The notes: generated from the letters alone by a model not told the origin. A DNA stretch of 64,000 nt from an uncultured Planctomycetia bacterium (GCA_964650515.1 CAZYUB010000002.1:12708-76707), one strand, 5' to 3'; counted from the stretch's first letter, positions 328 through 18,633 are shown. A program made the numbers and translations.

Positions 328-351
328 ATGCGAAGAAGAGCGGAGGTTTAC

Positions 352-834
352 ATGGGTACTAAAAAATGCCGCATGTTGGATGATATCGGCCTTATTGTGT
401 ATGATTTCGACGGGGTCTTCACGGATAACAAGGTGATTCTCAGGGAGGACGGCAAGGAGAGCGTTGTTGTGAACAGGTCCGACGGACTTGCGGTTGGCAT
501 GCTGAAAACCCTGGGTGTCCCGCAATTCATACTGACTACAGAAACAAACGGTGTCGTCAGATCCCGTGCGAAAAAGTTGGGCATCGGTATCAAAAAAGGG
601 CTGAAAGACAAGAGGTCGGCGCTTGTATCATTATGCAAGACGCACGGCGTGTCTCTCAGGAATGTAATGTTCGTTGGAAATGATATCAATGACCTCGAAG
701 CGATGAGGGAATGCGGCTATCCGGTTGCGCCAGCCGACTCTTACGCCCCGGCAAAGAAGGCAGCAAGGATAATCACAAAGGCAAAAGGCGGCGGCGGGGT
801 AGTGCGTGAACTGCTGGATATACTGTTAAAATAA
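352..834 (+). CDS. KdsC-family HAD-IIIA phosphatase (3-deoxy-ulosonate-phosphate phosphatase-like)
   Basis: HAD motif I 'IVYDFDGVFTDN' and motif IV 'GNDINDL', about 160 aa, as in KdsC/NeuAc-9-P phosphatase. ATG 352 has GGAGG 6 nt upstream; ATG 328 directly abuts the previous stop and is an alternative start. Confidence 0.6.
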   Translation: MGTKKCRMLDDIGLIVYDFDGVFTDNKVILREDGKESVVVNRSDGLAVGMLKTLGVPQFILTTETNGVVRSRAKKLGIGIKKGLKDKRSALVSLCKTHGVSLRNVMFVGNDINDLEAMRECGYPVAPADSYAPAKKAARIITKAKGGGGVVRELLDILLK

Positions 835-836
835 AT

Positions 837-2669
837 ATGCTTACATATGACTTGGGTATGATGAGGTCACCGGACGGCTCGTCATTAAGATATGAAGTGG
901 AAAGAAAGTCCTCCGATCTTGCTATTAAAATTTCGGAGGCCATTGCATCCGAGCGCGCGTATGAAGAGATTTCTGGAAGGCTTCCAAGCCGAAGGGTTCG
1001 GTCGTATTTCCAGTACCTGCTGAAGAAGGAAGTGTATCCTTATGTCCGCCAAGCCTGCGTGATTGATTGGTATAGGCGAAACTCAAAAGAAGTATCTCCG
1101 GAGAACCGTCCTGTAAAGGTTCCGATCGGAGGAATATTCCCGCTACTGATTCAATGCTGGGATTTTAACGATATTAAGATAATACCCGAAATAAAAGTAT
1201 GCTCAGTTTATAAGTCATTACCTATTATTGGTAAGCGGATCAAAGATATGTTATATAGGAAGAATCGCGCTCATAATTATAGCATGACGTTGCGCAAACC
1301 TGACGGATATATGATCGCGTGCCATTATACAGAAGGAATTGATCCGCTCAAGAGGAATGACCTTAACTGGTATGATGGAAGCGGGATTGATCCCATGAAG
1401 GTATTAGTCTATTTCGACACCCCCAACAACAGTAACGGAAATCCTGTTAGGAAGGAAGAGGTTGATAAGCTGAGAAAAGCGGGGTTCACAACCGTGGTAT
1501 TGAAAGAAGGCATTGTCGAGGGGGGTGAAAATATTTTATGGCCGGGTCCGGCAAATTGTAGGGATAGTGCTGTAGATATCCGGTCTGCGTCCAATTCCGT
1601 GGAGCGTTGGATATACGCAGCAGGTAACGATATTATCGGAGATGTTAAATATTGGCGTGCATTCCATGATGATTTTAATGTTAGGATAAACTATATTCCC
1701 GAGGAAGGCGCCATAAAGAACCATGCGCAGGCAATTGCTTTCGATATGGACGGGGAAAAGGGTGGGTTGCTTGCAGGTAAACAGCGCTCGGAAGCATACC
1801 TTCCTTATAGATACCATTTGGGATATCATCCGAAGCATTTGTTCTTCATGTGGAACAGCAGGGCCGCGGGGCAACTAGGTTGTGGAACTGAAACAATAGA
1901 CGATATTGTACTGACCGGCTATACTTATGACGCACTAAAAAGGTTGCGTTTCGATGGAGAAGGTTTACCGTCAAAGGATATGAGGACTCGCGGGGCAAAG
2001 ACCGTAATAGCATTGTTTGATAACATGCATGGATGCGATTATTTTGTATCGACGAATGACATGGTGCGTTTCTATAAAGCATTTTTTGAATGGGCCATTG
2101 CAGATGATAAAATCGGGTTGATAATTAAATCCAAGAAACCCATGGTCATGGAGAGGCTGCCGCGGATCCGGACATTGATGGCCAAAGCAACGGATACGGG
2201 CAGATGTATAAAGATGGACGACGAGTGGGGAAGGTATCCGTCAGATGCATCATTCGGTGCGGATTTTGCAGTCGGAACCGGGATATCGTCCGCCGTAATG
2301 GAATCGGTGATTTCAGGATGCAGGGGCATACATTATGACGCGACTCATTTGATAGGGCATGAATTCTACAAATGGGGACATAACAGGATAATCTTTGATG
2401 ATCTTGATAAGATGGTGAGTGCGCTGAAAGGATATGCCTTTGACCCGGGAAGTGAAGAAGGCCTCGGGGATTGGTCAAATCATTTAAATGAGATCGACTC
2501 CTTCCGTGACTGGAAGGGTGGAGAACGCATGGGTCAGTATATGAGAATATTACTGGAATCGTTCGATAAAGGAATGACAAGGCGCGAGGCTTTGGACAAT
2601 GCCGATAGGTTTTACAGGGACAAATGGGGGCAGGACAAGGTCATAAGGACGGGACAAACAAATGGATAA
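837..2669 (+). CDS. hypothetical protein with GT-B-like C-terminal signature (candidate capsule-type KpsC/KpsS- or TagF-like transferase)
   Basis: 610-aa ORF in the lower-GC block. C-terminal 'AVGTGISSAVMESVISGCRGIHYD' resembles the GT-B donor-binding helix. Same architecture as 9641..11491 and 17197..18633. No firm family assignment. Confidence 0.35.
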   Translation: MLTYDLGMMRSPDGSSLRYEVERKSSDLAIKISEAIASERAYEEISGRLPSRRVRSYFQYLLKKEVYPYVRQACVIDWYRRNSKEVSPENRPVKVPIGGIFPLLIQCWDFNDIKIIPEIKVCSVYKSLPIIGKRIKDMLYRKNRAHNYSMTLRKPDGYMIACHYTEGIDPLKRNDLNWYDGSGIDPMKVLVYFDTPNNSNGNPVRKEEVDKLRKAGFTTVVLKEGIVEGGENILWPGPANCRDSAVDIRSASNSVERWIYAAGNDIIGDVKYWRAFHDDFNVRINYIPEEGAIKNHAQAIAFDMDGEKGGLLAGKQRSEAYLPYRYHLGYHPKHLFFMWNSRAAGQLGCGTETIDDIVLTGYTYDALKRLRFDGEGLPSKDMRTRGAKTVIALFDNMHGCDYFVSTNDMVRFYKAFFEWAIADDKIGLIIKSKKPMVMERLPRIRTLMAKATDTGRCIKMDDEWGRYPSDASFGADFAVGTGISSAVMESVISGCRGIHYDATHLIGHEFYKWGHNRIIFDDLDKMVSALKGYAFDPGSEEGLGDWSNHLNEIDSFRDWKGGERMGQYMRILLESFDKGMTRREALDNADRFYRDKWGQDKVIRTGQTNG

Positions 2670-3834
2670 GCTCAATATTCTTGTTGTGGGAACAGGCATG
2701 TACGTTTGCGGCCGCGGCACATCTGGGGACGGGACCATAATGCCGGCGATATTCGAATGGGGCAGGACTGGAAATATCGGGAAGGTAATTGTAGCGGGCA
2801 GGAGTGCGTCCGGCGCAAAGGAAGCGAGAAGGAAGATAAGCGCGCTCAGCAGGAAAATGGGCGTATCCATTCCGGTATCTTTCTATCCGCAAGGGAACGA
2901 CGACGCAAAGGCGTACCTTAAAGCTATAGAAGACATGCCTCGGCCGGCATGCGCACTTGTGGCGACACCTGACAGGCTGCATAAGCGTAACGCAAAGGCG
3001 GCCATAAAAGCGGGATTGAATACGCTTGTAGTCAAGCCGCTTGTATCGACCGCTGCGGAAGTAAGGTCGCTTGTAGGCCTTCAGAAACGGATGAAAGTGT
3101 ATTGCGCGGTGGAATTCCATAAAAGGTATGATGATGCCAATCTGAAGCTAAGGGATGTTATATCACAGGGTGCTATAGGTGACCCGCTGTATTTCCTTGC
3201 TGAGTTCAGCCAAAGGAAGAGCATGCCGGAAAAAGTATTCAGGAGATGGGCAGCCTCTACTAATATTTTCCAATACCTTGGGATCCATTATGTGGACATG
3301 ATCCACTTTGTCACCAAGGCGAAACCGGTGCGGGCAATGGCTACCGGCCAGTCGTATTGGCTGAAATCAAAAGGCATTGATACGTATGATGCCGTTGAAG
3401 CCGTTACCGAGTGGAAAATGAAGAATGGAAAAAGATTCGTCTCGCATATACTCACCAACTGGATAGATCCCGAGAAGACATCGGCAATGTCCGACCAGAA
3501 GATAAAGGTCATAGGCACGAAAGGAAGATTTGAGTCAGATCAAAAGGACCGCGGAGTTACGATGGTTACCGACAAGAATGGCATAGAAGAGATCAATCCG
3601 TATTTTTGCGGCCAGTATGGCCCTTATGGGAATGTGAGATTTCGCGGCTATGGAATAGACAGCATAAAGACCTTTCTCGATGATTCTATAGCGGTAGAAT
3701 ACGGCAGCAAAACCATTGAAGAACTTGAGAAGGAAAGGCCTACCTTCAGCGACTCGCTTATATCCACAATGGTGCTTGAAGCCGTTAATACAAGCTTGAA
3801 ACGCAACGGTAAATGGGTTGAGATAGGCGGATGA
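2662..3834 (+). CDS. Gfo/Idh/MocA-family NAD(P)-dependent oxidoreductase
   Basis: N-terminal Rossmann 'LNILVVGTGMYVCGRG' and 'EWGRTGNIGKVIVAGRSA'; 390 aa, typical for this family (sugar dehydrogenases). Confidence 0.65.
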   Translation: MDKLNILVVGTGMYVCGRGTSGDGTIMPAIFEWGRTGNIGKVIVAGRSASGAKEARRKISALSRKMGVSIPVSFYPQGNDDAKAYLKAIEDMPRPACALVATPDRLHKRNAKAAIKAGLNTLVVKPLVSTAAEVRSLVGLQKRMKVYCAVEFHKRYDDANLKLRDVISQGAIGDPLYFLAEFSQRKSMPEKVFRRWAASTNIFQYLGIHYVDMIHFVTKAKPVRAMATGQSYWLKSKGIDTYDAVEAVTEWKMKNGKRFVSHILTNWIDPEKTSAMSDQKIKVIGTKGRFESDQKDRGVTMVTDKNGIEEINPYFCGQYGPYGNVRFRGYGIDSIKTFLDDSIAVEYGSKTIEELEKERPTFSDSLISTMVLEAVNTSLKRNGKWVEIGG

Positions 3835-4874
3835 AAAGGATATCCGTACCGCACGAGCGGTTATCGGTATTTATAAAGAAAGTGCTTCTGAATGCCGGGG
3901 TGCGCGAAGATGTTGCGTATCATGTCACTGAAGGACTCGTGCAAGCGTCATTAAGGGGCGTCGATTCCCACGGCATAAGGCTCTTTCCGCATTATATGGC
4001 GTCGGTAAAAGCCGGCAGGATAAATCCCGGCCCCGCATATAAGTTCGAGAGGACATCAGCCTCTACCGGAAAGTTCGACGCGGACCATACGTTCGGGCAC
4101 GCCGCGGGCATAGAGTCGGCGAGGAAGGCTGTGGAGCTCGCGAAGGAAGCGGGGACGGGCAGCATAGCCGTGTTCAATTCGACCCACTTCGGCGCGGCCG
4201 CATATTTCACGCTCGAGATAGCCAAACAGGGGATGATAGGGTTGAGTTTCACTCATGCGGATTCCCTGATGAAGACATATGCGGGCAAGAGGGCGTTCCT
4301 CGGGACGAACCCGATATCTTTCGCCGCGCCGGTGGAGGGCGAAGAGCCGTTCTGCCTAGACATGGCCACGACGCTTTATAATTTCAACAAGATAAAACAG
4401 CTGAGGGAGCGCAAGCATCCCGCACCGGAAGGCGTAGGCGCGGATACGGAAGGCAATGAGACGACGGATGCGGATAAGATATCGATGCTGCTTCCAATAG
4501 GCGGATACAAAGGATACGGCCTCAGCCTGATGGTGGAGGTGCTTTGCGGGATACTTACCGGCATGCCATATGGCCCGAATATATCGAGCATGTTCAAGGC
4601 GCCGTTATCGCAGAAAAGGTTCCTCGGACATTTTATTTGCGCCATGAGGATAGACTGCTTCCAGGAAGAGAAAGTGTTCAAGCGGCGCATGTCCGCGCTT
4701 TTGAATGAACTGAGGAATGAGCCTCCCATGGAGAAAGGGGTACCGGTGCAGGTGGCGGGAGACCCGGAGAAGAAGGCCGCCTCGGCAAGGATGAAAGAAG
4801 GGATACCGATGGCCGCGCAGGAGGCGGAGGCCTTCATGAAGTTATCCGCCGAATACGGGGTGGAATTCATATAG
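3831..4874 (+). CDS. Ldh_2 family (malate/L-lactate/L-sulfolactate-type) dehydrogenase
   Basis: 'GVDSHGIRLFPHYMASVKAG', 'HTFGHAAG', 'GSIAVFNSTHFGAAAYF' match the type-2 malate/L-lactate dehydrogenase fold; 347 aa. Confidence 0.6.
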   Translation: MKRISVPHERLSVFIKKVLLNAGVREDVAYHVTEGLVQASLRGVDSHGIRLFPHYMASVKAGRINPGPAYKFERTSASTGKFDADHTFGHAAGIESARKAVELAKEAGTGSIAVFNSTHFGAAAYFTLEIAKQGMIGLSFTHADSLMKTYAGKRAFLGTNPISFAAPVEGEEPFCLDMATTLYNFNKIKQLRERKHPAPEGVGADTEGNETTDADKISMLLPIGGYKGYGLSLMVEVLCGILTGMPYGPNISSMFKAPLSQKRFLGHFICAMRIDCFQEEKVFKRRMSALLNELRNEPPMEKGVPVQVAGDPEKKAASARMKEGIPMAAQEAEAFMKLSAEYGVEFI

Positions 4875-6520
4875 TGGAAAGAGCGGACTTCGCGATAATA
4901 GTCCCTCCGGCGGGGGTAAGCAATACGGTGTATCCGCCGTACGGGGCGATGTACATAGCCAGCGCGGCAAGGAAGGCGGGGCTAGAGGTCCGCATAATCA
5001 ATGTCGATACAGACAGGATATCGAACGCTGAAGTGATTAAACGGCTGAAGGCGTTCGGGCCGGGGTTTATAGGCATAAGCGGTATAGTCGCGCCGTCATA
5101 TAGATATATCAAATGCCTCAGCACGGATATTAAGTCCGCGATGCCGGAGAGCATACAGATACTCGGCGGAGGGTTATCGAGCGCGGCAGAGACGGTCCTG
5201 AGGAACATGCCGGTGGATTACGTCATAGCGGGCGAAGGAGATTCGGCAATAACGGAACTCATCGGCCGCCTGCGGAACGGGAAGGTTCCTTCGGATGTAA
5301 CCGGGCTTTATTACAGGGATGGCGGAAAATACGTATTCACGGGCGCGAGGAGACTTATCGCGAATATAGATGAATTGCCGTATCCCGCATTCGACCTTGT
5401 CGATATGTCCAGGTATATGCCTGACGGGAAGGAGTTCATAGGGTATTTCATCCAGGATATAAAGGACAGAAGGATAACGGATCCCGGCCGTAAGGGCGGG
5501 ATGGTGACGATACCGACAGGCAGAGGATGCTTCGGGAAGTGCTCATTCTGCTTCAGGGCATACCCGGGGCTCAGGACCCATTCCATGAAATATGTATTCG
5601 ACCTCATAGAATACTGCGCGGAGAAATTCGGCACGAGCTACTTCTCCTTCGGGGACGAATGCTTCGCGCCGAACAAGGAACATAATTGGAGGTTTATCGA
5701 GGAGTACAAGAGGAGGAAGCTCGACCTCGTCTTCAGGATACTCGGCATGAGGGTCGACACGGTCGACAGGGATATATTGCACGCTTATAAAGATATAGGA
5801 TGCTGGATGATCGAATATGGTTTCGAGGCCGGCAACCAGAGGATGCTGAATATCATCGACAAGAGGGTTACTGTGGAGCAGAACAGGCAGGTCGCCCTCT
5901 GGACCAGGGAGGCGGGGATATATACGTCGCCGACGATCGTCCTCGCGATGCCCGGAGAGACGGACAGGACAGTCAACGAATCTATAGGGTTCCTTAAATC
6001 GCTGAACCTCGGTTATAAGCAGTACCAATGGTCGTACGCCCTGCCGATACCCGGCGCGCCGCTATATGATTTCGCGAAGCTGTCGGGCGCCATCAAGGAC
6101 GAAGACGAATATCTCACCTCGCTTGACGGCAAGGTCGCGGGCGCGGGGGTCTTCCATGTAAATCTTACCGATGAGCCGGACTCGACTGTCGCCGGATGGG
6201 CGGACAGGATAAAGGAAGAGGTCGACGCGGATTATTTCAGGAGGGTATACAGGTTCGGGGCGGTTGCCGCGATAGCGCGCCTTTTAAAGAAGATCCGCCT
6301 GCATTTAAGGAGGAAGGACCTGAAGGATGTCATCAAAGGAAAATTGAAGAGCATCTGGCGGGGACATCCGGGCGGGCAAACCTCTGCCCCTGTCGCAGTC
6401 CCGGCAAGGTTCAGGAAGAGAAGTGATATCGTATTCGAGGACCTGATAAAGGGCATGGACGATACGGTCATCAACAGGGATATGGCGCTGAAGAACATAA
6501 ATACGAGGATTGCGTCGTGA
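4874..6520 (+). CDS. B12-binding domain radical SAM protein (class B rSAM; probable sugar C-methyltransferase or epimerase)
   Basis: N-terminal cobalamin-binding Rossmann-like region, then 'TGRGCFGKCSFC' (CxxxCxxC) radical SAM cluster motif. GTG start overlaps the upstream stop. Confidence 0.7.
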   Translation: MERADFAIIVPPAGVSNTVYPPYGAMYIASAARKAGLEVRIINVDTDRISNAEVIKRLKAFGPGFIGISGIVAPSYRYIKCLSTDIKSAMPESIQILGGGLSSAAETVLRNMPVDYVIAGEGDSAITELIGRLRNGKVPSDVTGLYYRDGGKYVFTGARRLIANIDELPYPAFDLVDMSRYMPDGKEFIGYFIQDIKDRRITDPGRKGGMVTIPTGRGCFGKCSFCFRAYPGLRTHSMKYVFDLIEYCAEKFGTSYFSFGDECFAPNKEHNWRFIEEYKRRKLDLVFRILGMRVDTVDRDILHAYKDIGCWMIEYGFEAGNQRMLNIIDKRVTVEQNRQVALWTREAGIYTSPTIVLAMPGETDRTVNESIGFLKSLNLGYKQYQWSYALPIPGAPLYDFAKLSGAIKDEDEYLTSLDGKVAGAGVFHVNLTDEPDSTVAGWADRIKEEVDADYFRRVYRFGAVAAIARLLKKIRLHLRRKDLKDVIKGKLKSIWRGHPGGQTSAPVAVPARFRKRSDIVFEDLIKGMDDTVINRDMALKNINTRIAS

Positions 6521-7563
6521 TAAAGGAAGCACTGCTTGGCGCGGATTACAGGTTCGACGGGGCGCGGGCGCCCGAATCGCTGAGCAGCCCGCAGAATGAG
6601 GCGAGGGAGCTCTTCCTTAAGGAAATCCACGCGAGGGGAAGATACATCGACGTAGAAAGATGCCCTTTCTGCGGGGCGACGGAGTTCACTAAGATATCGG
6701 AAAGGGACGCGAGGGGGCTGCCGTGCGAAGTGGCCGTCTGCGACGCCTGCGGCGGTTGCTTCAAGAACAGGATATTGGACCCGGAGGCGAACAGGTACCT
6801 ATACGAGAAGATATCATACAAGCTTAGAGGCAAGGACCGTTCTCCCGGTGCGGTAGAAGCGCTGTTCAGGAAAAGGATAAAGGAATTCGCCTACCCGAGA
6901 TACGGGTTCATAAGGCATTTCGCCGAACTGGAGCAGGATATGGACCTTATCGCCGAATTCGGCTGCGGCGACGGAGCGAACCTGGTCCCGTGGAGGAATG
7001 ACGGTTTCAGCGTGACAGGCATCGAGTTCGACGGCGGAATGGTCGAGTTCGGCAAAAGCAAGGGGCTCGACCTCGTTCAGGGCGATTTCATGACTCACGA
7101 CCTCGGAGGGGCGAGGCCGAAGCTTATAATACTGTCGCACCTGCTTGAGCATGTATCGGACATGGACGCGGTCTTATCGCGCATACATTCCGTGCTCGAC
7201 CCTTACGGATACCTTTTCATAGAAGTGCCGGGCGTGAAAGGACAGGGCCTTGGCAGGCCGTTATCTTCGTTCGATGTTGAGCACAATTACTATTTTGACC
7301 TCGAAAGCCTTTCGTCGGCGCTGGGGAAGAACAGGTTCTCCGTGGCTTACGGAGACGAATATATAAGGATGATCTGCAGGCCGGCCGGCGCGCAGATCGC
7401 GGGACCGCAGAATAAGAAGGCCGGCGCGCGAAGGTTGTTGGACCTGTTCAGGCGAGAGGAGTCGGGAAGCATCAGGGCGAAGGTCATGAACAGGCTGACC
7501 GGCGCGTACTTCAAGGCGTATTATTCGATATTATCGTCAGGAGTCGGACATGGCAAAGCGTAA
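6517..7563 (+). CDS. class I SAM-dependent methyltransferase with N-terminal Zn-ribbon
   Basis: 'CPFCG...C..CG' zinc ribbon, then SAM motif I 'IAEFGCGDGANL'; GTGA start overlap. Confidence 0.6.
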   Translation: MIKEALLGADYRFDGARAPESLSSPQNEARELFLKEIHARGRYIDVERCPFCGATEFTKISERDARGLPCEVAVCDACGGCFKNRILDPEANRYLYEKISYKLRGKDRSPGAVEALFRKRIKEFAYPRYGFIRHFAELEQDMDLIAEFGCGDGANLVPWRNDGFSVTGIEFDGGMVEFGKSKGLDLVQGDFMTHDLGGARPKLIILSHLLEHVSDMDAVLSRIHSVLDPYGYLFIEVPGVKGQGLGRPLSSFDVEHNYYFDLESLSSALGKNRFSVAYGDEYIRMICRPAGAQIAGPQNKKAGARRLLDLFRREESGSIRAKVMNRLTGAYFKAYYSILSSGVGHGKA

Positions 7564-8287
7564 ATGCAGGACGGTCGCAATGATACCCGCGCGCATGGGC
7601 AGCACGAGGCTCGCTATGAAGAACCTCGCGTTGATAGGCGGGAAACCGATGATCTACTACGCGATAAAGGCGGCGAAGGATTCGGGCGTATTCGACAGGG
7701 TGGTCATAAATTCGGAAGACAGCGTATTCGCGAAGATAGCGAAGCGTTACGGCGCGGAATTCTACCTGCGCCCGCGGGAATGGGCGACCTCGGCCGCGAA
7801 ATCAGATTACGTGGTATATGATTTCGTCAGGAATAACCCGTGCGATGTGGTCGCGTGGGTCAACCCGACGTCGCCGCTGCAGACTGCGGACGAGGTAAGG
7901 GGCGCCATGGAATATTTCGAAAAAAAGAAGCTCGATTCGATGATAACCGTCAAGGACGAGCAGGTCCATTGCGTATATAAAGGAAAGCCGGTCAATTTCA
8001 AGCTGAAGGAGGTCTTCGCGCAGACGCAGGACCTCGTCCCTGTACAGCCCTTCGTATATTCGGTGATGGCATGGAAGACGGGAAGGTTCATGAAAGAGTT
8101 CGAAAAAAAGGGTTTTGCGTTCTTTTGCGGTAAGACGGGGTATTACCCGGTAAGCAAGCTCGCGGGCATAATAATCAAAAGGCAGGAAGACCTGATGGCC
8201 GCGGACCTTATACTGCGGTCTATCTCAAAAAAAGGCGGGTACAAGCTGCGATACGACAAGCTCGCCGTAAAGGGCAGGAGAGGATAA
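7550..8287 (+). CDS. acylneuraminate/CMP-ulosonic acid cytidylyltransferase (CTP_transf_3, NeuA/PseF/LegF-like)
   Basis: 'VAMIPARMGSTRLAMKNLALIGGKPMIYYAIKAA...FDRVVINSED...AKRYGAEFYLRP' matches the CMP-NeuAc synthetase N-terminal fingerprint. Confidence 0.7.
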   Translation: MAKRKCRTVAMIPARMGSTRLAMKNLALIGGKPMIYYAIKAAKDSGVFDRVVINSEDSVFAKIAKRYGAEFYLRPREWATSAAKSDYVVYDFVRNNPCDVVAWVNPTSPLQTADEVRGAMEYFEKKKLDSMITVKDEQVHCVYKGKPVNFKLKEVFAQTQDLVPVQPFVYSVMAWKTGRFMKEFEKKGFAFFCGKTGYYPVSKLAGIIIKRQEDLMAADLILRSISKKGGYKLRYDKLAVKGRRG

Positions 8288-8288
8288 T

Positions 8289-11491: not shown

Positions 11492-11492
11492 A

Positions 11493-13298
11493 ATGAGACC
11501 CGAAAGGAAAGTCAACGCAGTATGGTTCTTCCTGAAACGCTACAAGCGCATCTACGTGACGATGCTTTTAGTCACGATAGGATATTCCGTGCTCGAGAGC
11601 GTGAATATATCGATGTTCCTTCCGCTCTTCACGTCGGTCGTGGGGGAGAGCGCCGAGACGGCCGGAAAGTTCTTCCGGATAATGGAGGGCATCATATCGC
11701 TGATGCCGTTCGGGAACAGGTTCCTGAACATATGCGTGTTGATAGTGGTGCTGCTCGTGGTCAAGGAGATACTCGGATTCGTCAGGCACGTGCTGATCGG
11801 CTACGGGATAGGCAGGGTCATAACCGACGTCAAGGAAGAGATCTTCAACAAGTACGTCAATTCGGATTACCAGTTCTTCCTCGACAACAAGCAGGGCAGG
11901 CTCCTCTATAATATGCTTACGGCCACCGGACGCCTCGGCAGCTGCCTGCAGTTCATACCCGATTTCATAAACGCGATGCTGATGACGGTAAGCATAGGCG
12001 CGCTGCTCTTCTCGATGTCGTTCGGGGTGACGATGGTGCTCCTCGTAGCGGGCCTGGCTTTCAATCTCCTTACGCAGATACTGGCCAAACGCGTCTCTTA
12101 CCACATAGGGACGGAGAGGGCGACCGTCAGCACCGAAGCGAACGTCATAGCGAACGAGGTGATAGACGGGATAAAGCATATAAAGGTCTTCGGTTCGTCG
12201 GAGTTCTGGAGGCATAATTTCGAGCGATCGGTAAGGCGCTTCAAGACCCTCGTCATAGAGGATTTCGTATGGATAGGCATCCCCGAAAGGGTAATGCAGC
12301 TGCTTCCCGCGGCGATGCTTATAATGGTTGCCATATTCTTCAGGCATTTCAGCAAAGGCCCGGACGCCGATCAGGCGTTTTCCGCCAAGATAGCGCTTGT
12401 GGGCGTATATGCGTACGCGTTCTACAGGCTAATCCCTTTCCTGACGTCATTCGGAAGGCTGCGTATGCAGATAATGGGCGCGCTTCCCGAGGTCGAGCTA
12501 TTGTACGACGACCTGCATGAGGACACGAACAGGATCAAGGACGGCAATACGAAGATAGACGGGTTCAGGAAGGAACTGGCGTTCAGGGACGTGAGCTTCA
12601 ATTACAAGGGGAAGAAGGAGATACTTAACGGCGTCTCCTTCAATATCGAAAAGGGCAAGACCACCGCCATCGTGGGCGCCTCCGGAAGCGGCAAGACAAC
12701 GCTGATAAACCTCATTGTAAGGCTCTTCGTGCCTGACGAAGGCAGGATAACCCTGGACGGGACAGACCTGAGGGACATCAAGTACGCCTCGCTTATCAAG
12801 CTCATCGGGATGGTAAGCCAGGACACGTTCATATTCAACGCGACGATAAAGGAGAATATCATCTTCGGCCTTAAGGCAGTGACGCACGAACGGCTTGTCA
12901 ACGCGTGCAAGCTGGCCAACGCGCATGATTTCATAAGCAATTTCCCCGAAGGCTACGAGACGGTCGTCGGCGATAAGGGATTGAAGCTGTCGGGCGGGCA
13001 GAGGCAGAGGATAGCCATTGCGCGCGCGATAATCAGGGACCCGGAGATACTGATACTCGACGAGGCGACGAGCTCGCTCGATTACCATTCCGAGGCGATA
13101 GTGCAGGAGGCCATAAACGAGGTATCGAAGAACAGGACGGTCATAGTCGTAGCGCACAGGCTTTCCACGGTGATCGACGCGGACAAGATAATAGTCATGG
13201 ACAAGGGCAGGATAGTAGAGGAAGGGACGCATGCCGCGCTTATAAAGAAAGAAGGGGTCTACAGGGCTTTATATGAAAGACAGCAAAAAACGATATAA
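11493..13298 (+). CDS. fused TMD-NBD ABC exporter (MsbA/PglK-like, candidate lipid-linked glycan flippase)
   Basis: Six predicted N-terminal TM helices, Walker A 'GASGSGKTT', ABC signature 'LSGGQRQRIAIARA', Walker B 'ILILDEATS', H-loop 'VIVVAHRLS'. Confidence 0.85.
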   Translation: MRPERKVNAVWFFLKRYKRIYVTMLLVTIGYSVLESVNISMFLPLFTSVVGESAETAGKFFRIMEGIISLMPFGNRFLNICVLIVVLLVVKEILGFVRHVLIGYGIGRVITDVKEEIFNKYVNSDYQFFLDNKQGRLLYNMLTATGRLGSCLQFIPDFINAMLMTVSIGALLFSMSFGVTMVLLVAGLAFNLLTQILAKRVSYHIGTERATVSTEANVIANEVIDGIKHIKVFGSSEFWRHNFERSVRRFKTLVIEDFVWIGIPERVMQLLPAAMLIMVAIFFRHFSKGPDADQAFSAKIALVGVYAYAFYRLIPFLTSFGRLRMQIMGALPEVELLYDDLHEDTNRIKDGNTKIDGFRKELAFRDVSFNYKGKKEILNGVSFNIEKGKTTAIVGASGSGKTTLINLIVRLFVPDEGRITLDGTDLRDIKYASLIKLIGMVSQDTFIFNATIKENIIFGLKAVTHERLVNACKLANAHDFISNFPEGYETVVGDKGLKLSGGQRQRIAIARAIIRDPEILILDEATSSLDYHSEAIVQEAINEVSKNRTVIVVAHRLSTVIDADKIIVMDKGRIVEEGTHAALIKKEGVYRALYERQQKTI

Positions 13299-14997
13299 AG
13301 AATTCGAGATCCTTGATTGTACTATCAGGGACGGCGGTTACCTCAACGACTGGAAGTTCGATAAGGCGCTTGTCAGGGAGGTTTATAGGGCCGTCTCGAA
13401 AGCGGGTGTGCCTGTCATCGAGATAGGGTTCAGGGGGACGGATGAGCATTTCGACAGGAAGAGGTACGGCCCCTGGAGGTTCTCGGACGAGTTGTTGCTG
13501 CGCGAGACGATCGAAGGGATAGACGGCGCGAAACTCGCCCTGATGGGTGACTTCGGCAGGATATCGGCGGACGACTTTGTCCCGCGCGACGAGAGCGTTG
13601 TCGATATCGTGAGGATAGCGGCCCATAAGAACGATATAGCGGAAACTATCAAGACCCTCGGCAGGATAAAGAAGAAGGGCTATAAGACATCGCTTAATGC
13701 GATGGGATACAGCAACTACACGAAATCGGAACAGAAGAAGTTCGTCTCGATGGTCAGGAAGGCGGGCCTCGATTATGTATATGCGGTGGACAGCTACGGT
13801 TCGGTCTTCCCGAACGAGATAGAAGGGCTCATCAGCCCGCTGCTCGGCATACGCGGGACGAAGGTCGGGTTCCATCCGCATAACAGCCTGCAGATGGCGT
13901 TCGCGAACACGCTTGAGGCGGTCCGCTGCGGCGCGGATATAGCCGATTCTACGTTCTACGGCATTGGCCGCGGGGCGGGCAACCTGCCGACCGAAATAAT
14001 CGTACTCTATAAGGAACTTTTAGGCGATAAGAAATATAACGCGATCCCGGTCCTCAATTGCATAGACAGGTACTTCCTGCCGATGAGGAAGGAGATTGAC
14101 TGGGGATACCAGCTGCCGTTCATGCTCTCGGGGATGTACAAATGCCACCCGAACTACGCGAGCGGCCTGATAAATTACAGGGAATATACGATAGACGAGA
14201 TATGCAAGGCGATGGAGGCCATTGAGAAGAGGAACCCGTTAGGATACAAGCCGGAGATATTAAAGGAGATCATAGAGGACGGGCTTATCGGGAAGCTGAA
14301 GACCTCCTCCGTCACGAAGAAGGCGGGGAAGGCCAGGAAAACCGGGGCATCAGTGCCGTATGCGGGAAGGCATGAAGGCAGGGATTTCCTGGTGCTGGCC
14401 AACGGGCCCGGCCTGAAGGATAACAGGGAGAAGATAGAGGCGTTCATAAGGAAGACGGACCCCGTCATACTCGGTGCTAACAACCTCTCGGGGCTGTTCG
14501 TCCCGCATTATCACGCGTTCAACAACAAGAGGAGGTTCACGGATTACGCCGGTACCGTATCCGGGAAGTCGAAACTCCTCATAAGCGAATATTTCCCGGA
14601 TGAGTTCATCAGGGAATACACGGACAGGGACTACGAGAAACTGTATTATAACGATGTCCTGAACGCGCATTTCGGCATCGATGACGGGGTCATACGGACG
14701 AATTGCAGGACGATATCGGTCCTGCTTATCGGCGCGGCGATAGTAATGGGCGCCAGGAGGATATTCGTCGCCGGGATGGACGGCTACCTCGGCCCGGGCA
14801 CAGAGGGCAAGGCCCTCTATTACAACGAGAAAGACGAAAAGACCGACAAGCAGATGATCATCGAGAGGCATATGTGGTGCCAGAAGTTCCTGGAGGAGAT
14901 CGAGGCATACCTGCAGAAGAACGGCAGGGAGGGTATCCATATCATAACGCCCACGACCTACAAGGCGTTCTATAAAAGCGTGGAAAATTACATATGA
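13273..14997 (+). CDS. DRE-TIM (HMGL-like) pyruvate aldolase domain fused to MptE-like/DUF115 (Maf-type) domain
   Basis: N-terminus 'ILDCTIRDGGY', 'FHPHNSLQMAFANTLEAVRCGA', 'GIGRGAGNLPTE' match DmpG/HMG-CoA lyase/IPMS metallo-aldolases. C-terminus 'FLVLANGPGLKDNREKIEAF...PVILGANN' resembles DUF115/6-hydroxymethylpterin diphosphokinase MptE-like. Confidence 0.55.
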   Translation: MKDSKKRYKEFEILDCTIRDGGYLNDWKFDKALVREVYRAVSKAGVPVIEIGFRGTDEHFDRKRYGPWRFSDELLLRETIEGIDGAKLALMGDFGRISADDFVPRDESVVDIVRIAAHKNDIAETIKTLGRIKKKGYKTSLNAMGYSNYTKSEQKKFVSMVRKAGLDYVYAVDSYGSVFPNEIEGLISPLLGIRGTKVGFHPHNSLQMAFANTLEAVRCGADIADSTFYGIGRGAGNLPTEIIVLYKELLGDKKYNAIPVLNCIDRYFLPMRKEIDWGYQLPFMLSGMYKCHPNYASGLINYREYTIDEICKAMEAIEKRNPLGYKPEILKEIIEDGLIGKLKTSSVTKKAGKARKTGASVPYAGRHEGRDFLVLANGPGLKDNREKIEAFIRKTDPVILGANNLSGLFVPHYHAFNNKRRFTDYAGTVSGKSKLLISEYFPDEFIREYTDRDYEKLYYNDVLNAHFGIDDGVIRTNCRTISVLLIGAAIVMGARRIFVAGMDGYLGPGTEGKALYYNEKDEKTDKQMIIERHMWCQKFLEEIEAYLQKNGREGIHIITPTTYKAFYKSVENYI

Positions 14998-15728
14998 AAA
15001 TAATCGGGGTAATACCGGCGCGTTTCAAGTCATCGAGGTTTCCCGGCAAGCCGTTGGCGGATATATGCGGAAAGCCGCTCGTATGGTGGGTATATAAACA
15101 GGCCGAGAAGGTAAAAGAACTCGGGAAGGTCTATGTCGCTACGGATGACGGCAGGATAGCCCGGGTATGCAAAAAGCTCGCGATACCGTATGTGATGACC
15201 TCGGGCAGGCACCAGACAGGCACGGACAGGGTCGCCGAGGTCGCGAGGAAGGTCAAAGCGGATATTTACGTGAATATACAGGGGGATGAACCCCTGCTGA
15301 AACCCGCTATGATAAGAAGCGCGATAGGACCCCTTTTGAAAAAGAATTCCGGATTCGATGTTACGAACCTGATGTCTTTAATACGCAACCCGAAGGAGGT
15401 ACCGAGCCCGACCGTCCCGAAGGTCGCGGTGAGCGCGAAGGGCGACGCCGTATTCCTCTCGAGGGCGCCGATACCTTATCCGAAGAGGGGCGGCTACGCG
15501 CAGTATTATAAGCAGGTCTGCGTATACGGGTTCAGGAGGAAGGCGTTATTGGCGTTCGGCGGGCTTTCGAGAGGGGCTTCCGAGCTTATAGAGGATATCG
15601 AGCTGCTGCGCTTTATAGAGAACGGCATAAAGGTCAGGATGATCGAAGTGAAAAGCGGCAGCATGGCGGTTGATACTCCTGAGGACCTGAAGGCGGTAAA
15701 AAAGATAATATGCAAAAACCGGGCGTAA
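14994..15728 (+). CDS. 3-deoxy-manno-octulosonate cytidylyltransferase-like (CMP-Kdo synthetase family, KdsB-like)
   Basis: 'IIGVIPARFKSSRFPGKPLADICGKPLVWWVY...GKVYVATDD...VNIQGDEPLL' is the classic KdsB N-terminal pattern; 244 aa. Confidence 0.7.
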   Translation: MKIIGVIPARFKSSRFPGKPLADICGKPLVWWVYKQAEKVKELGKVYVATDDGRIARVCKKLAIPYVMTSGRHQTGTDRVAEVARKVKADIYVNIQGDEPLLKPAMIRSAIGPLLKKNSGFDVTNLMSLIRNPKEVPSPTVPKVAVSAKGDAVFLSRAPIPYPKRGGYAQYYKQVCVYGFRRKALLAFGGLSRGASELIEDIELLRFIENGIKVRMIEVKSGSMAVDTPEDLKAVKKIICKNRA

Positions 15729-17206
15729 TATTCATCAACCCGTCGCTTGCGCAGGATGGGGGCAAATGCGACGAAGTGCTGTTCCCGTTCGCTGCCATCA
15801 TGCTGCTCGCGACGATCCTCGACAAGTCGGGGTATGATGTCACGATCATCGACGGCAATATGTATACGTCGGCGGAATGCATCGGTAAGGTCCGCGCGGC
15901 GGTCAACGAAAACACGGTCTTCGCGGGATTTTCCGTGATGACCTCGCAGGTCAAATGGGCTTATGAAGTGGCCGGCGCGCTCAAGAAGTCGCATCCGGGC
16001 CTTAAGATAGTGTGGGGAGGGGTGCACGCGACCTTATACCCGGAACAGACGATCGCGGACCCGCTTATAGACATAATAGCCGTCAATGAGGCGTGCAGTT
16101 CGATAGCGATGCTCGCAGAGGCGTTGAAGAACGGCGGCGGCCTCTCGAACGTGCCCGGCATATATTTCAAGAAGGACGGAAAAACGATAAAGAACGCGCC
16201 GTACCTGCCTGATGACATCACGAAGATACCGCAGATCGATTTCTCTCTTTTCGATGCGCTCCGCTACGCCAGGAACAACCTGCTCCCGAAGGCATACGAC
16301 CTTCCGCTAAAGGATGCAGTGATGATGCCCATAATAACGGGGCTCGGATGCGCTTATAAGTGCTCGTTCTGCATAAACGTCATCCTGAACAGGAAATACC
16401 GGTATATGGAAGCGAAGGAGATAGTGGACAGGATAGAATTCCTGCAGAAGGAATACGGAGCGAACTTCTTCCAGCTGCTCGACGAGGACTTCTTCATAAA
16501 CAAGAAGAGGACGATGGATTTCATCGAGCTTGTCGAGAAGAGGGGGCTTAAGTTCTATTTCAGACCGTGGATGCGCGTATCGTATTTCAGGGACAACTAC
16601 ATTTCTGAAGAGGTCGCGAAACGGCTCGAGAAGATAGGCATGGTCACGGCGGTGATGGGGGCCGAGTGCGGCTCGCAGGCGATGCTGGATAAGATACATA
16701 AGCAGATAAAAGTGGAAGACACCGTGAACGCGGCGAGGACGCTTTCGAAGACGCGGATCGTGCCGAGGTATTCGATGATGGTAGGGCTTCCGGGAGAGAC
16801 GAAGGAAGATATACTGGCTACCTACCGGCTCGCGCTGAAGCTGAAAGATATAGACTGCAGGTCGGATATACCGATACTCAGTTTTGCCGCGTATCCCGGT
16901 TCGCCGATATACAGCGAAGCGGTCAGGAAATACGACCTGAAGGAACCCGGCAGCCTTGCGGAATGGGCAGCCCTCGACTTCTCGGGTTTCCTCGGATTCT
17001 ATTCCGCGCAGGGCAAGCCGTGGATATTCGACAGGAAGATATTCGAGAGGATGAACAATTATTACAATATCGGCTTCCAGTTCTCGCCGAGAAAGACATT
17101 GCGCAACAAAGTGCTCTACCCGCTGCTAAGATCGCTGATCAGGTTCAGGTTCGTTACAGGATGGTTCGGGTTCCCGGTCGAGGAGTTCATACTCGGATGC
17201 CGTTAA
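15710..17206 (+). CDS. B12-binding domain radical SAM protein
   Basis: N-terminal B12-binding region and 'TGLGCAYKCSFC' CxxxCxxC; C-terminal 'AAYPGSPIYSEA' as in the paralogues. Confidence 0.7.
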   Translation: MQKPGVIFINPSLAQDGGKCDEVLFPFAAIMLLATILDKSGYDVTIIDGNMYTSAECIGKVRAAVNENTVFAGFSVMTSQVKWAYEVAGALKKSHPGLKIVWGGVHATLYPEQTIADPLIDIIAVNEACSSIAMLAEALKNGGGLSNVPGIYFKKDGKTIKNAPYLPDDITKIPQIDFSLFDALRYARNNLLPKAYDLPLKDAVMMPIITGLGCAYKCSFCINVILNRKYRYMEAKEIVDRIEFLQKEYGANFFQLLDEDFFINKKRTMDFIELVEKRGLKFYFRPWMRVSYFRDNYISEEVAKRLEKIGMVTAVMGAECGSQAMLDKIHKQIKVEDTVNAARTLSKTRIVPRYSMMVGLPGETKEDILATYRLALKLKDIDCRSDIPILSFAAYPGSPIYSEAVRKYDLKEPGSLAEWAALDFSGFLGFYSAQGKPWIFDRKIFERMNNYYNIGFQFSPRKTLRNKVLYPLLRSLIRFRFVTGWFGFPVEEFILGCR

Positions 17207-18633
17207 CCGATTCCACGAAAAGATTGGTGGAGGAGTGCGCGGGCCTGAACGCGCGTACCGCTGGGCGGCTCGGCCCCGGGCTCGGATTCCTTGTATGGGC
17301 ATCCCCGACGGCATACAGGGACCCGGAAGATACGAAACTCTGGCATCCGGTATATCTTGAAAAGCCGGTTGCGTATAAGCTTCCCGCGCTTTGCTGCATG
17401 TACCTGCGTTATGCGCTAATAGGGGTAATAAGGTGTTTCGCTTACAGGGGTTTCTCCTACGCATACAGGGAGAAAAGAGCGCCGGTGCTTATCGTGATGG
17501 CTGAGGAGATAACGGACCATTCAAAGGAGTTCAGCACCGATTATATAATCGAAGATACTTCGCATCATGAAGACAAACTCGTCTTCTCGAGGACAAAAAT
17601 CATCGGCAGCAACTATACTGCGCTGGGCTTCTGGAAGAAGATGGTGATCGGAGAGAAGCTGGAAATGGCGCTGATCGCCGATTTCATCCGGAAACTATTG
17701 GCGGGACGCCTGAGCATGGCATACATGGAATCGCTGGCCATATTCCACAGGTGGGTGATATCTTATTCCTGGTGTTTTCATTATGATTTCTACATGCTGG
17801 TGCATAAGGTGCTCAGCCGCGAGCCTGCGGAATACCGTTCGGTGTTCGTACCGCATGAGATGCATTTCTATTCAAGGATGGTCTGGAAAGCGGCTAAAGA
17901 GCTGAATGTAAAAGGCATTACCGCGCAGCATGCGATGATATTGCCCGAGAAGCTGTGGTATTTTCCCGAGGCCGCCGAAGTTAGGGCCGGGTGCGCCCTT
18001 CCGGACATATTCTATGTTTACAGCGAGGGTATAAAAGCCCTACTCGGCAGGTACTACCCGGGCACGGACCTCCGGCTTTGCTGCAGCCCGAGGTTCAGGA
18101 AATGGAAGGACTCCGGCAGGCTGGACAGGTCGCGCGCTGACGCGGTAACGTTCGTATGCGGGATAATGGAGTATGACACCGCGATAATCGTGGAAGCGGC
18201 AAAGACATTGCTTGCGGAGGAATATAAGGATAAGAGGAAGATCCGGCTTCGGCTGCATCCCGCCGGTATAATAGGCAGGGAACAGAGGGATTGGATAGAA
18301 GCGGCATCCAAGACAGGCTCGATAGAGCTGTCGAAGGTGCAGCTCAAGGAGGAATTTGAGTTGTCTAGGCTGATAATAGGATCGAACTCCGCGGTGCTGC
18401 AGGAAGCGGTGCTTTCGGGCGTGCCGGCGCTCGCCCTAACCAGCAGGGAATATATATGCGCGTCCGTCCTTCCCGACGAAGATAAATGGACCATAGACGT
18501 ATCGCGGTTATCATGGAAACGGGTAGAAGAGCAATCCGCCAGGACGCCGGACCAGGACACGACACGCCGGTTCAGGGCAAACATGGGGCTCGACAACCCT
18601 GACCTGACCACGGCAACGGTGGCCGCGGCATGA
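17197..18633 (+). CDS. hypothetical protein, capsule-polysaccharide-biosynthesis (KpsC/KpsS-like) or other GT-B-like transferase candidate
   Basis: Most plausible start is ATG 17197, with GAGGAG 11 nt upstream. The 16963 extension is a spurious in-frame read-through. C-terminal 'LIIGSNSAVLQEAVLSGVPALALTS' resembles the Capsule_synth/GT-B motif. Confidence 0.35.
   Translation: MPLTDSTKRLVEECAGLNARTAGRLGPGLGFLVWASPTAYRDPEDTKLWHPVYLEKPVAYKLPALCCMYLRYALIGVIRCFAYRGFSYAYREKRAPVLIVMAEEITDHSKEFSTDYIIEDTSHHEDKLVFSRTKIIGSNYTALGFWKKMVIGEKLEMALIADFIRKLLAGRLSMAYMESLAIFHRWVISYSWCFHYDFYMLVHKVLSREPAEYRSVFVPHEMHFYSRMVWKAAKELNVKGITAQHAMILPEKLWYFPEAAEVRAGCALPDIFYVYSEGIKALLGRYYPGTDLRLCCSPRFRKWKDSGRLDRSRADAVTFVCGIMEYDTAIIVEAAKTLLAEEYKDKRKIRLRLHPAGIIGREQRDWIEAASKTGSIELSKVQLKEEFELSRLIIGSNSAVLQEAVLSGVPALALTSREYICASVLPDEDKWTIDVSRLSWKRVEEQSARTPDQDTTRRFRANMGLDNPDLTTATVAAA

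Follow-up and report, generated by a model that had tools for sequence, protein, structure and literature searches.

Three Divergent GT-B-Like Proteins Encoded Beside CMP-Sugar Synthetases as Candidates for Attaching Acidic Sugars to a Cell-Surface Glycan

Introduction

A 64,000-nucleotide stretch of DNA from an uncultured Planctomycetia bacterium, referred to as a whole as the window, raises the question of which proteins would transfer the CMP-activated ulosonic acids whose synthesis its genes suggest. Beside the CMP-sugar synthetase genes, it encodes three large proteins (A, B, and C) that a preliminary description had presented as soluble paralogues of unassigned family, and as the best candidates for the missing CMP-ulosonic-acid transferases.

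Three Proteins Without an Assigned Family

The three open reading frames are indeed present on the plus strand (Table 1), and the start retained for C is backed by homologues of 478-500 aa, one of them at 93% identity. Scans against Pfam and NCBIfam assign none of the three proteins to a family at or above cut-off, and no 19-residue Kyte-Doolittle window reaches 1.6 in any of them, i.e., no membrane span is predicted; they are therefore soluble or peripheral, as had been described. Speaking of new families is equally fair, since each of them stands at the head of a separate family, made up of 35-72 unnamed clusters. Each has 28-50 invariant columns that cluster in inter-domain loops, which is the pattern of active enzymes.

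Table 1. Genes and protein motifs of the window discussed in the text (aa, residue numbers).
Feature	Position	Strand	Remarks
KdsC/KDN-9-P-phosphatase-like HAD phosphatase	328..834	+	Directly upstream of A
Protein A (610 aa)	837..2669	+	Predicted GT-B fold with N-terminal helical extension
A, PEEG	aa 288-291		N-domain
A, IALFDNMHG	aa 389-397		C-domain
A, GLIIKSKKP	aa 427-435		C-domain, HP-motif position
A, GTGISSAVMESVISGCRG	aa 480-497		C-domain
Gfo/Idh/MocA oxidoreductase	2662..3834	+	Downstream of A
Ldh_2 2-oxoacid dehydrogenase	3831..4874	+	Paired with Gfo/Idh/MocA downstream of A
CTP_transf_3 cytidylyltransferase, PseF/NeuA-like	7550..8287	+	PF02348, 79.6 bits
GT2 (N-terminal)::CTP_transf_3 (C-terminal) fusion	8289..9641	+	Pfam; C-terminal half PseF/NeuA-like
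Protein B (616 aa)	9641..11491	+	Predicted GT-B fold with large helical insertions
B, motifs			LISHGSH (H370 invariant); VHAGTPK (cf. TarL FAPTFR); IVRFRPS (R489-P490 at HP position); VSFSSTTIEEALQNRIPVLLYG
HepA/MsbA/PglK-like ABC exporter	11493..13298	+	Directly downstream of B
HMGL-like (pyruvate-aldolase-type) domain with C-terminal weak MptE/Maf-like domain	13273..14997	+	PF00682, 77 bits
KdsB-family CMP-ulosonate synthetase	14994..15728	+	NF009905, 289.8 bits (cut-off 255)
B12-binding radical SAM enzyme	15710..17206	+	Most C-family loci have an orthologue ahead of C
Protein C (478 aa)	17197..18633	+	TagF-like by profile
C, motifs			HEMHFYS; TAQHAMILPEKLWYFP (H245); CCSPRF; RLRLHP (H354-P355); IGSNSAVLQEAVLSGVPAL
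GT2 glycosyltransferase	18630..19559	+	Most C-family loci have an orthologue after C

Gene Context and Its Conservation

The neighbors are as they had been named, i.e., KdsB-like, NeuA-like, and aldolase genes. The KdsB-family enzyme additionally passes TIGR00466 (158.7 bits, cut-off 155.2); the stand-alone PseF/NeuA-like protein stays below equivalog cut-offs (87.8 bits with TIGR03584, cut-off 205.7), and the HMGL-like protein is below cut-off with 4-hydroxy-2-oxovalerate aldolase models (101-121 bits). The C-terminal domain of the latter has a sub-threshold match to PF01973 (MptE; E = 0.0018, 18.6 bits, cut-off 34.6), for which comparison with the PDB gave no support.

The link to CMP-sugar synthetases is a strong one and extends widely across the phylogeny. 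In a survey of neighbors within 10 kb at 52 B-family loci, from 52 genomes and more than 15 lineages, a CTP_transf_3 cytidylyltransferase of the KdsB/NeuA type was found at 46, in lineages that include Omnitrophota, Planctomycetota, CPR, Dehalococcoidia, Deltaproteobacteria, Legionellaceae, SAR86, Pelagibacteraceae, Leptospiraceae, and an archaeon. The GT2::CTP_transf_3 fusion occurs at half of the loci (26/52) and is, among labelled genes, the one most often found immediately upstream of B, whose start in the window overlaps the stop of the fusion gene, i.e., the two are translationally coupled. The Gfo/Idh/MocA-Ldh_2 pair (2662..4874 here) is conserved at 22 of the 52 loci, the ABC exporter at 20 (downstream of B in 12), and the fusion of HMGL and MptE-like domains at nine. 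The 94.5%-identical loci L008 and L004 are without the exporter, as a clean indel. A short B-family protein (398 aa, E = 1.5e-31) is encoded on a Rhizobium plasmid, in a cluster with three TagF-like hypothetical proteins, a NeuB-family synthase, an acylneuraminate cytidylyltransferase, WbuX/Z, and the Wzm/Wzt ABC transporter. C has a recurrent setting of its own: a KdsB-like gene lies upstream, and C itself is flanked by a B12-binding radical SAM gene and a GT2 gene. Gene neighborhood alone does not separate donor use from precursor synthesis.

Remote Homology to TagF-Like Proteins

That the three proteins are paralogues, as previously stated, is not borne out by all-against-all comparison: BLASTP finds nothing among them (E > 0.4), and hhalign gives probabilities of 1.8% for A-B and 1.1% for A-C, joining only B and C, weakly and over their last 78 columns (56%, E = 1e-4). 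Instead, they are related only at the superfamily level, via an intermediate family. A search of 1.84e9 proteins with the C profile reaches bridging proteins of 530-700 aa (E = 5e-13 to 1e-7, library-wide), some of them Glyphos_transf-positive. Of ten tested, five are at or above the Pfam Glyphos_transf (PF04464) cut-off of 22.1, with 23-58 bits, and NCBI names one bridging protein a CDP-glycerol glycerophosphotransferase family protein. PF04464 was reported neither for the three proteins themselves nor for the members of the B and C families when these were scanned one by one. Against the bridging family, hhalign gives 98.3% for B, 92.3% for A, and 99.9% for C, this last value being partly circular because the bridging set was picked with the C profile; the bridging profile in turn matches TarL with E = 9.6e-9. 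At the level of profiles, these comparisons establish a remote homology of all three proteins to TagF-like proteins, and the earlier "TagF-like" label is thereby upheld, TarL being also the top fold match of A.

Structure prediction gives both A and B a GT-B fold, with two Rossmann-like β/α/β domains and an inter-domain cleft. All three proteins have the C-domain strand-helix element with a Glu of the ribose-binding type (E489, invariant, in A; E536/E537, invariant, in B; E403, conserved in at least 90%, in C), in register with the TarL ...DYSSLIYEY element. The C-terminal stretch noted previously thus holds in all three as a GT-B donor-domain element, according to the hhalign register and to structural models, whereas the exact pattern as written is found in C alone: A ends in ...SGCRG, without the Pro, and the version in B is FSSTTIEEALQNRIP.

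Two histidines are both invariant and essential in TagF-like enzymes (PMC10901376). In a 73-sequence superfamily alignment of C, C-like, and bridging proteins, the sole invariant columns are H245 and H354. The HP of C (H354-P355) aligns with that of TarL (H433), and N-domain H245 is placed opposite TarL H300 by spacing only; on this alignment, C keeps both histidines. B retains H370 and has R489 in place of the second (RP for HP), together with other TagF-like features (SHG, HAGTPK, and the SS..EE helix). In A, KSKKP (K434-P435) replaces HP, and the N-domain histidine is not alignable.

A has a further distant match, between its C-domain (aa 404-528) and positions 395-519 of TIGR04417, an uncharacterized "polysaccharide biosynthesis PFTS motif protein" family (E = 3.6e-9), a match shared by 22 of 41 A-family members. 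The likeness is limited to the last quarter of the 522-position model, and the score of 36.1 bits, for a cut-off of 100, does not make A a member; a literature search on this family found no paper. Weak matches to DUF354 and DUF6716 were also obtained in C scans.

Comparison with Transferases of Acidic Sugars

TagB-like proteins encoded beside CMP-nonulosonate pathways are already known. In Tannerella forsythia, Tanf_01245 and TFUB4_00887, which have TagB domains, are needed for the terminal addition of Pse or Leg, i.e., there is genetic evidence for nonulosonate transfer (PMC5420450). Compared by motifs and length, these GT-B proteins have an HP motif, as C does, and a D/E-D/E-G motif, reminiscent of the PEEG of A, but they are shorter (about 445 aa, versus 478-616 aa here), and the two motifs never occur together in A, B, or C, from which the GT38/52/80 sialyltransferase signature combining both is therefore absent. 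In B. subtilis, SpsB, which also has a TagB domain and is encoded beside a Leg pathway, is dispensable for Leg transfer (PMC7439481).

A link to capsule synthesis enzymes had also been drawn. KpsC and KpsS (GT107), WbbB (GT99), and KrkA (GT140) are retaining β-Kdo transferases, i.e., GT-B-derived, CMP-Kdo-dependent enzymes with an HP motif. The KpsC/KpsS signature consists of HP and QxxxKD motifs; the latter is absent from A, B, and C, and a positionally correct HP is found in C alone. Neither the three proteins nor the B and C families, on scanning, gave a match to PF05159 (Capsule_synth), and one bridging protein passes its cut-off of 20 (23.3 bits). What is left of this link are marginal C-domain matches of broad profiles: the C-centered one matches those of KpsC (E = 1.3e-3) and WbbB (E = 3.7e-3), KpsC ranging from 1.3e-3 to 4.8e-3 across profiles. 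Deeply divergent new families in the Kdo-transferase field are still being found (PMC12887879).

A Possible Role in the Assembly of Acidic Glycans

A, B, and C are best explained as belonging to a GT-B branch that comprises TagF/TarL transferases, UDP-GlcNAc 2-epimerases, and KpsC/WbbB Kdo transferases. Within this branch, we regard as evenly balanced the proposal that they represent three distinct and highly divergent families of peripheral GT-B proteins using cytidine-nucleotide donors. The transferase activity that we infer for all three, with its donor, acceptor, and catalysis, would proceed as follows. The C-terminal Rossmann domain would bind the cytidine nucleotide of a donor supplied by the adjacent KdsB/NeuA-type cytidylyltransferases (genes starting at 7550 and 14994, and the C-terminal half of that starting at 8289), with the ribose held by the ...SS/T-x-x-x-E-A... 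strand-helix element and the phosphate at the HP/RP/KP position. The N-terminal domain would position a hydroxyl of the acceptor (a growing glycan that is probably linked to a lipid), a conserved histidine (H245 in C, H370 in B) would act as general base, CMP would leave, and the MsbA/PglK-like ABC exporter would later move the product.

Several observations would also suit a role in precursor supply, with one or more of the three, most likely B or A, as a NeuC/LegG/PseG-like nucleotide-sugar 2-epimerase or hydrolase making the hexose from which the ulosonic acid derives. The best fold matches of B are 2-epimerases/NeuC and not transferases, the first PDB match of the C-centered superfamily profile is a 2-epimerase, broad profiles match such enzymes with E = 9e-7 and 4.7e-5, and the HP-type C-domain with its ...EEA helix is shared with them. 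The scanned part of the window showed no canonical Epimerase_2 gene and, at locus L006, where an A-family gene adjoins a NeuB/CTP_transf_3/DegT/PglD set, neither LegG nor PseG was seen. Such a role is nonetheless unlikely, as the weak Epimerase_2 (PF02350) matches of B-family and bridging proteins always stay below the cut-off of 30.6 (best 25 bits, in bridging proteins), with Glyphos_transf passing in the same bridging proteins. Epimerases are marked by HvEAG in the N-domain and HR..EN in the C-domain; neither motif was seen, and B has TagF-type x-A-x-T-x-K/R and SHG instead. In addition, the coupling of B to the GT2::cytidylyltransferase fusion, with an exporter after it, points to an assembly-like position rather than to precursor supply.

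Since the nearest identifiable relatives are Glyphos_transf/TarL proteins, i.e., CDP-polyol phosphotransferases (PF04464) whose leaving group is CMP, A, B, and C could alternatively be true TagF-type phosphotransferases, transferring the phospho-alcohol or phospho-acid of a CDP-linked donor to build a teichoic-acid-like phosphodiester polymer without glycosidic ulosonic-acid linkage. The C-domain register (β1, then (H/R/K)P, then the SS-x-x-x-E/D helix), the two histidines of C, and the APTxR-like phosphate motif of B would all fit, as would their peripheral character and the extra N-terminal or inserted regions of A and B, such regions being found N-terminally in TagF-like polymerases (PMC10901376). 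The conserved Ldh_2 2-oxoacid reductase could then provide a hydroxy acid, and the ABC exporter recalls teichoic-acid and group 2 capsule systems. This is rather improbable, in that the linked cytidylyltransferases are of the CMP-ulosonate type (CTP_transf_3: KdsB/NeuA/PseF, one of them above KdsB cut-offs) and not makers of CDP-glycerol or CDP-ribitol, genes of the TagD or IspD/TarI type were not seen next to A, B, or C in the window, and the KdsC-like phosphatase and the aldolase suit ulosonate synthesis. A moreover shows neither histidine and B lacks the second, B has helical insertions of about 250 aa, and the host lineages are not known for teichoic acid synthesis.

Finally, the ulosonic-acid transferase might be the GT2 of the fusion protein, which physically joins activation to a transferase domain, or the MptE/Maf-like domain encoded directly upstream of KdsB, Maf proteins being described as nonulosonic-acid transferases; in that case, A, B, and C would work with different donors or serve as partners without catalytic activity, which the apparent absence of both histidines from A would suit, but this is highly doubtful in view of the MptE score and lack of PDB support mentioned above, of GT2 enzymes not being known to use CMP donors, and of the invariant loop columns of A, B, and C.

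The previous ranking of the three as best candidates came from gene context, and the same stretch holds two others (8289..9641 and 13273..14997). Several GT2 proteins, the fusion, and the MptE-like domain are also plausible transferases in this cluster. The likeness to TagF/TarL and the near-constant presence of CMP-attaching neighbors therefore make A, B, and C reasonable candidates for attaching acidic sugars to a cell-surface glycan.

We only tentatively suggest that they form up to three new GT families for CMP-ulosonic acids, maybe methylated by the radical SAM enzymes, and that A and B belong to a widespread, undescribed module (A, Gfo/Idh/MocA, Ldh_2, cytidylyltransferase, GT2::cytidylyltransferase, B, and ABC exporter) building an acidic surface glycoconjugate. 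If so, this module would span Omnitrophota, anammox Planctomycetota, SAR11, SAR86, Legionellaceae, and Leptospiraceae.

Reading Frames and Their Neighbors

The window carries about 50 genes of surface-glycan synthesis in a single long operon-like array on the + strand. The three proteins A, B and C, described in a preliminary analysis as soluble paralogues of unassigned family with GT-B-like C-termini and as the best candidates for missing CMP-ulosonic-acid transferases, are indeed encoded there, and each of their genes abuts its neighbors or overlaps them by 1–10 nt. A longer frame for C, starting at 16963, runs into the preceding radical-SAM gene, and the start retained is supported by homologues of 478–500 aa, one of them 93% identical. 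None of the three contains a hydrophobic 19-residue window of at least 1.6; such windows do occur in the ABC exporter and in a PMT_2 protein of the same cluster. The NeuA-like, KdsB-like and aldolase neighbors reported for these genes are likewise present.

Features of the glycan cluster
Coordinates	Feature	Strand	Length
7..327	B12-binding radical-SAM fragment
328..834	KdsC-like
837..2669	A	+	610 aa
2662..4874	Gfo/Idh/MocA oxidoreductase and Ldh_2 pair
4874..6520	B12-binding radical-SAM enzyme
7550..8287	PseF/NeuA-like
8289..9641	GT2::CTP_transf_3 fusion, C-terminal half PseF/NeuA-like
9641..11491	B	+	616 aa
11493..13298	ABC exporter
13273..14997	Aldolase-like (HMGL-like) fusion
14994..15728	KdsB (cut-offs passed)
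15710..17206	B12-binding radical-SAM enzyme
17197..18633	C	+	478 aa
19556..21076	B12-binding radical-SAM enzyme
39230..40765	Large ORF	 	511 aa
43544..44992	B12-binding radical-SAM enzyme
49794..51896	Large ORF	 	700 aa

The gene directly upstream of B, whose stop overlaps the B start, is a natural fusion of a GT2 with a CMP-sugar synthetase (CTP_transf_3); we know of no characterized GT2::cytidylyltransferase fusion. The aldolase-like gene combines an HMGL-like domain of the 4-hydroxy-2-oxovalerate-aldolase type with a ~230-aa C-terminal domain, which has no significant match in the PDB, and is directly followed by the KdsB-family gene. It may provide a path to a 3-deoxy-2-ulosonic acid that is independent of NeuB and KdsA and linked to a Maf-like transferase. 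The cluster further contains at least four B12-binding radical-SAM enzymes and several SAM methyltransferases, an enrichment also seen in relatives (30/52 loci); this abundance suggests a glycan with unusual C-methylated sugars. The Ldh_2 partner of the oxidoreductase pair resembles ureidoglycolate and sulfolactate dehydrogenases. The two large ORFs are without Pfam match at E ≤0.1, and a profile search found no relation between them and A, B or C.

Family Assignment and Remote Homology

In agreement with the preliminary description, which could assign no motif to A, B or C, none of them reached the cut-off of a Pfam or NCBIfam model. The only signals lay below this level: the C-domain of A matched TIGR04417 ("PFTS motif protein"; 36 bits, cut-off 100; 22/41 A-family members), B gave a weak match to DUF6716 ("putative glycosyltransferase"; 36/46 B-family members), and DUF354 and DUF6716 matched 10 and 8, respectively, of 32 C-family members. 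No paper on "PFTS motif" or TIGR04417 was found in the literature. A, B and C each have a family of their own, comprising 72, 56 and 35 clusters, respectively, every one "hypothetical" and mostly from Omnitrophota, Planctomycetota, Dehalococcoidia and Nitrospirota. Profiles of the three families returned only noise from PDB sequences (e.g., antibody light chains, EngA), and A had no tblastn match among plasmids. One homologue in the B family and one in the A family (P0057 and P0107) carry the precomputed Pfam accessions PF27859.1 and PF27878.1, so that models overlapping with these families may already exist in more recent Pfam releases.

The proposed paralogy did not hold in its usual sense. 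BLASTP among A, B and C detected no usable similarity (E > 0.4), and direct profile–profile alignment with hhalign gave 1.8% for A-B and 1.1% for A-C, linking only B and C (56%, E = 1e-4) over their last 78 columns; no further copy of any of them was found by profile search among the 54 window proteins. A more distant connection emerged when the C profile was used in an exhaustive HMM search, which yielded 527 representatives and, ranking beyond the C family proper, a coherent set of 530–700-aa bridging proteins (D) that match C residues ~200–430 with library-wide E values of 5e-13 to 1e-7. Five of ten D proteins tested pass Pfam Glyphos_transf (23–58 bits, cut-off 22.1), one of the ten also passes the Capsule_synth cut-off, and one D protein is named CDP-glycerol glycerophosphotransferase family protein at NCBI. 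By hhalign, D aligns with C at 99.9% (E = 1.3e-31, 281 columns), a partly circular value since the C profile was used to pick D, and with B at 98.3% (E = 1.6e-14, 317 columns) and A at 92.3% (E = 5.5e-7, 216 columns, C-domain only), both independent of how D was chosen. One bridging protein alone had no match in the PDB; the D profile ranked TarL (E = 9.6e-9) above UDP-GlcNAc 2-epimerases (E = 9e-7) and KpsC (E = 4.8e-3). These profile comparisons place A, B and C as distant relatives within a single GT-B branch, not as recent duplicates, and the TagF-like resemblance noted earlier is borne out through their D relatives.

Structure and Active-Site Anatomy

Confident AlphaFold2 models were obtained for A (pLDDT 89.3, pTM 0.89) and B (pLDDT 91.8, pTM 0.93); neither KpsC nor WbbB is among the best 60 fold matches listed for either protein. 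Active-site equivalences were drawn from the hhalign register, the TarL alignment and per-column conservation.

Active-site elements aligned with TarL
Element	TarL	C	B	A
N-domain base	W-H300	TAQH245A	LISH370GSH	not identifiable
First C-domain strand	LFAPTFR	FVxGI	VHAGTPK	IALFDN
Phosphate-contacting motif	MH433P	RLH354P	FR489P	KK434P
Ribose-binding helix	DYSSLIYEY	GSNSAVLQEA	SFSSTTIEEA	GISSAVMES

When 73 sequences of C, C-like and D proteins are aligned, H245 and H354 of C are the sole invariant columns; this agrees with the "two invariant histidines" that mutagenesis identified as essential for TagB, TagF and TarL (PMC10901376). From order and spacing (109–124 residues, versus 133 in TarL), we infer that C H245 and B H370 are the likely equivalents of TarL H300. 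The sialyltransferase motifs co-occur in none of A, B and C. QxxxKD and a conserved DxD are found in none of the three, HP in the C-domain only in C, and [DE][DE]G only in A (PEEG, 288–291), where the lone EEG is given little weight because so short a motif can occur by chance.

Genomic Linkage of the B and C Families

Scanning by pattern, with each species represented by one genome, gave 52 B-family loci, whose ORFs were annotated locally. Their hosts include Omnitrophota, Planctomycetia (including Scalindua and Brocadiaceae), CPR, Dehalococcoidia, Deltaproteobacteria (including the cultured Desulfocarbo indianensis SCBM), Thermodesulfovibrionales, Legionellaceae, SAR86, Pelagibacteraceae, Leptospiraceae, SAR324, Bacteriovorax, Elusimicrobia, Saganbacteria and an archaeon. 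Within 10 kb of B, at least one CTP_transf_3-type gene lies in 46/52 loci (four of the six others are truncated contigs). The GT2::cytidylyltransferase fusion recurs across many phyla (26/52), often directly upstream of B, and the same interval holds the Gfo/Idh/MocA and Ldh_2 pair in 22 loci, an ABC exporter in 20, an A-family gene in 18, the HMGL::MptE-like fusion in 9 and a C-family gene in 5. In these 22 loci, the oxidoreductase pair accompanies A, B and the cytidylyltransferases; it was noted in the window and among loci L003, L006, L007 and L010–L057. At C-family loci, the order B12-binding radical-SAM, C, GT2 is recurrent, preceded at a distance of a few kb by a KdsB-like gene.

A 398-aa B-family protein (WP_147885249.1; E = 1.5e-31; motifs ILHAGN, FRIRPK and HFSTTVEQALQLGKPVLLWG) is encoded on a plasmid of Rhizobium sp. 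WL3, adjoined by three more TagF-like "hypotheticals" and enclosed by genes for an acylneuraminate cytidylyltransferase, WbuX/WbuZ/HisH, a Wzm/Wzt transporter and a NeuB-family synthase. This locus (NZ_CP042825.1, record 618485..627382) holds five (near-)consecutive "hypothetical proteins" of 398–513 aa, four of which are matched by B-family or TagF-like bridging profiles, and offers a culturable system for testing function.

Proposed Function and Alternatives

The reading with the best support takes A, B and C as three new GT-B families of the TagF/epimerase/KpsC branch, which would bind a cytidine-nucleotide donor made by the adjacent genes and pass on its activated group, releasing CMP. Tannerella forsythia, with its TagB-domain Pse/Leg transferases, provides a genetic precedent (PMC5420450), and B. 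subtilis SpsB a cautionary counter-example (PMC7439481). The group transferred may be a phospho-group instead of an ulosonic acid, and B and/or A may be precursor enzymes of epimerase or hydrolase type. The true ulosonate transferase may also be the GT2::CTP_transf_3 fusion or the C-terminal domain of the aldolase-like protein, whose MptE/Maf-like match is weak (PF01973, E = 0.0018, below cut-off). The preliminary description was partly confirmed in its observations, paralogy excepted, and partly supported in its interpretation.

Transferases for Kdo-like and nonulosonic acids are poorly catalogued, several systems being still without a known one, and GT140, a new Kdo-transferase family, was founded only in 2026. 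The consistent linkage of three unnamed GT-B families to KdsB/NeuA-type genes, in many uncultured phyla and some marine clades, makes them concrete transferase candidates, with C H245/H354, B H370/R489 and A E290/K433/K434 singled out for mutation. It also draws attention to a conserved seven-gene module (A, Gfo/Idh/MocA, Ldh_2, cytidylyltransferase, GT2::cytidylyltransferase, B and ABC exporter). What is new is the presence of unassigned GT-B families within a conserved, widespread, uncharacterized module, and no new principle is involved; if the proteins turn out to be ordinary enzymes of the TagF or epimerase type, the benefit would be limited to better annotation of ~160 hypothetical-protein clusters.

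Variability of the Cluster

The cluster is mosaic, segments 1..3106 and 21054..about 30000 being set apart. Nucleotide identity with an Omnitrophota MAG (JBAZJG010000001.1, locus L008) ends within the Gfo gene (3106) on one side and at 21054 on the other, and at these points GC falls from ~0.55 to ~0.46; in that genome, the orthologue of A is only 47% identical, those of B and C 95% and 93%, respectively. Compared with L008 and L004, whose flanks on both sides are 94.5% identical to the window, the ABC exporter gene forms a clean insertion/deletion of 1.77 kb (11494..13262). Among relatives, L001 and L003 carry sulfate-activation and sulfotransferase genes and L005 a PEP-mutase::cytidylyltransferase phosphonate module, so that sulfation or phosphonylation of the glycan made by this module family seems to vary.
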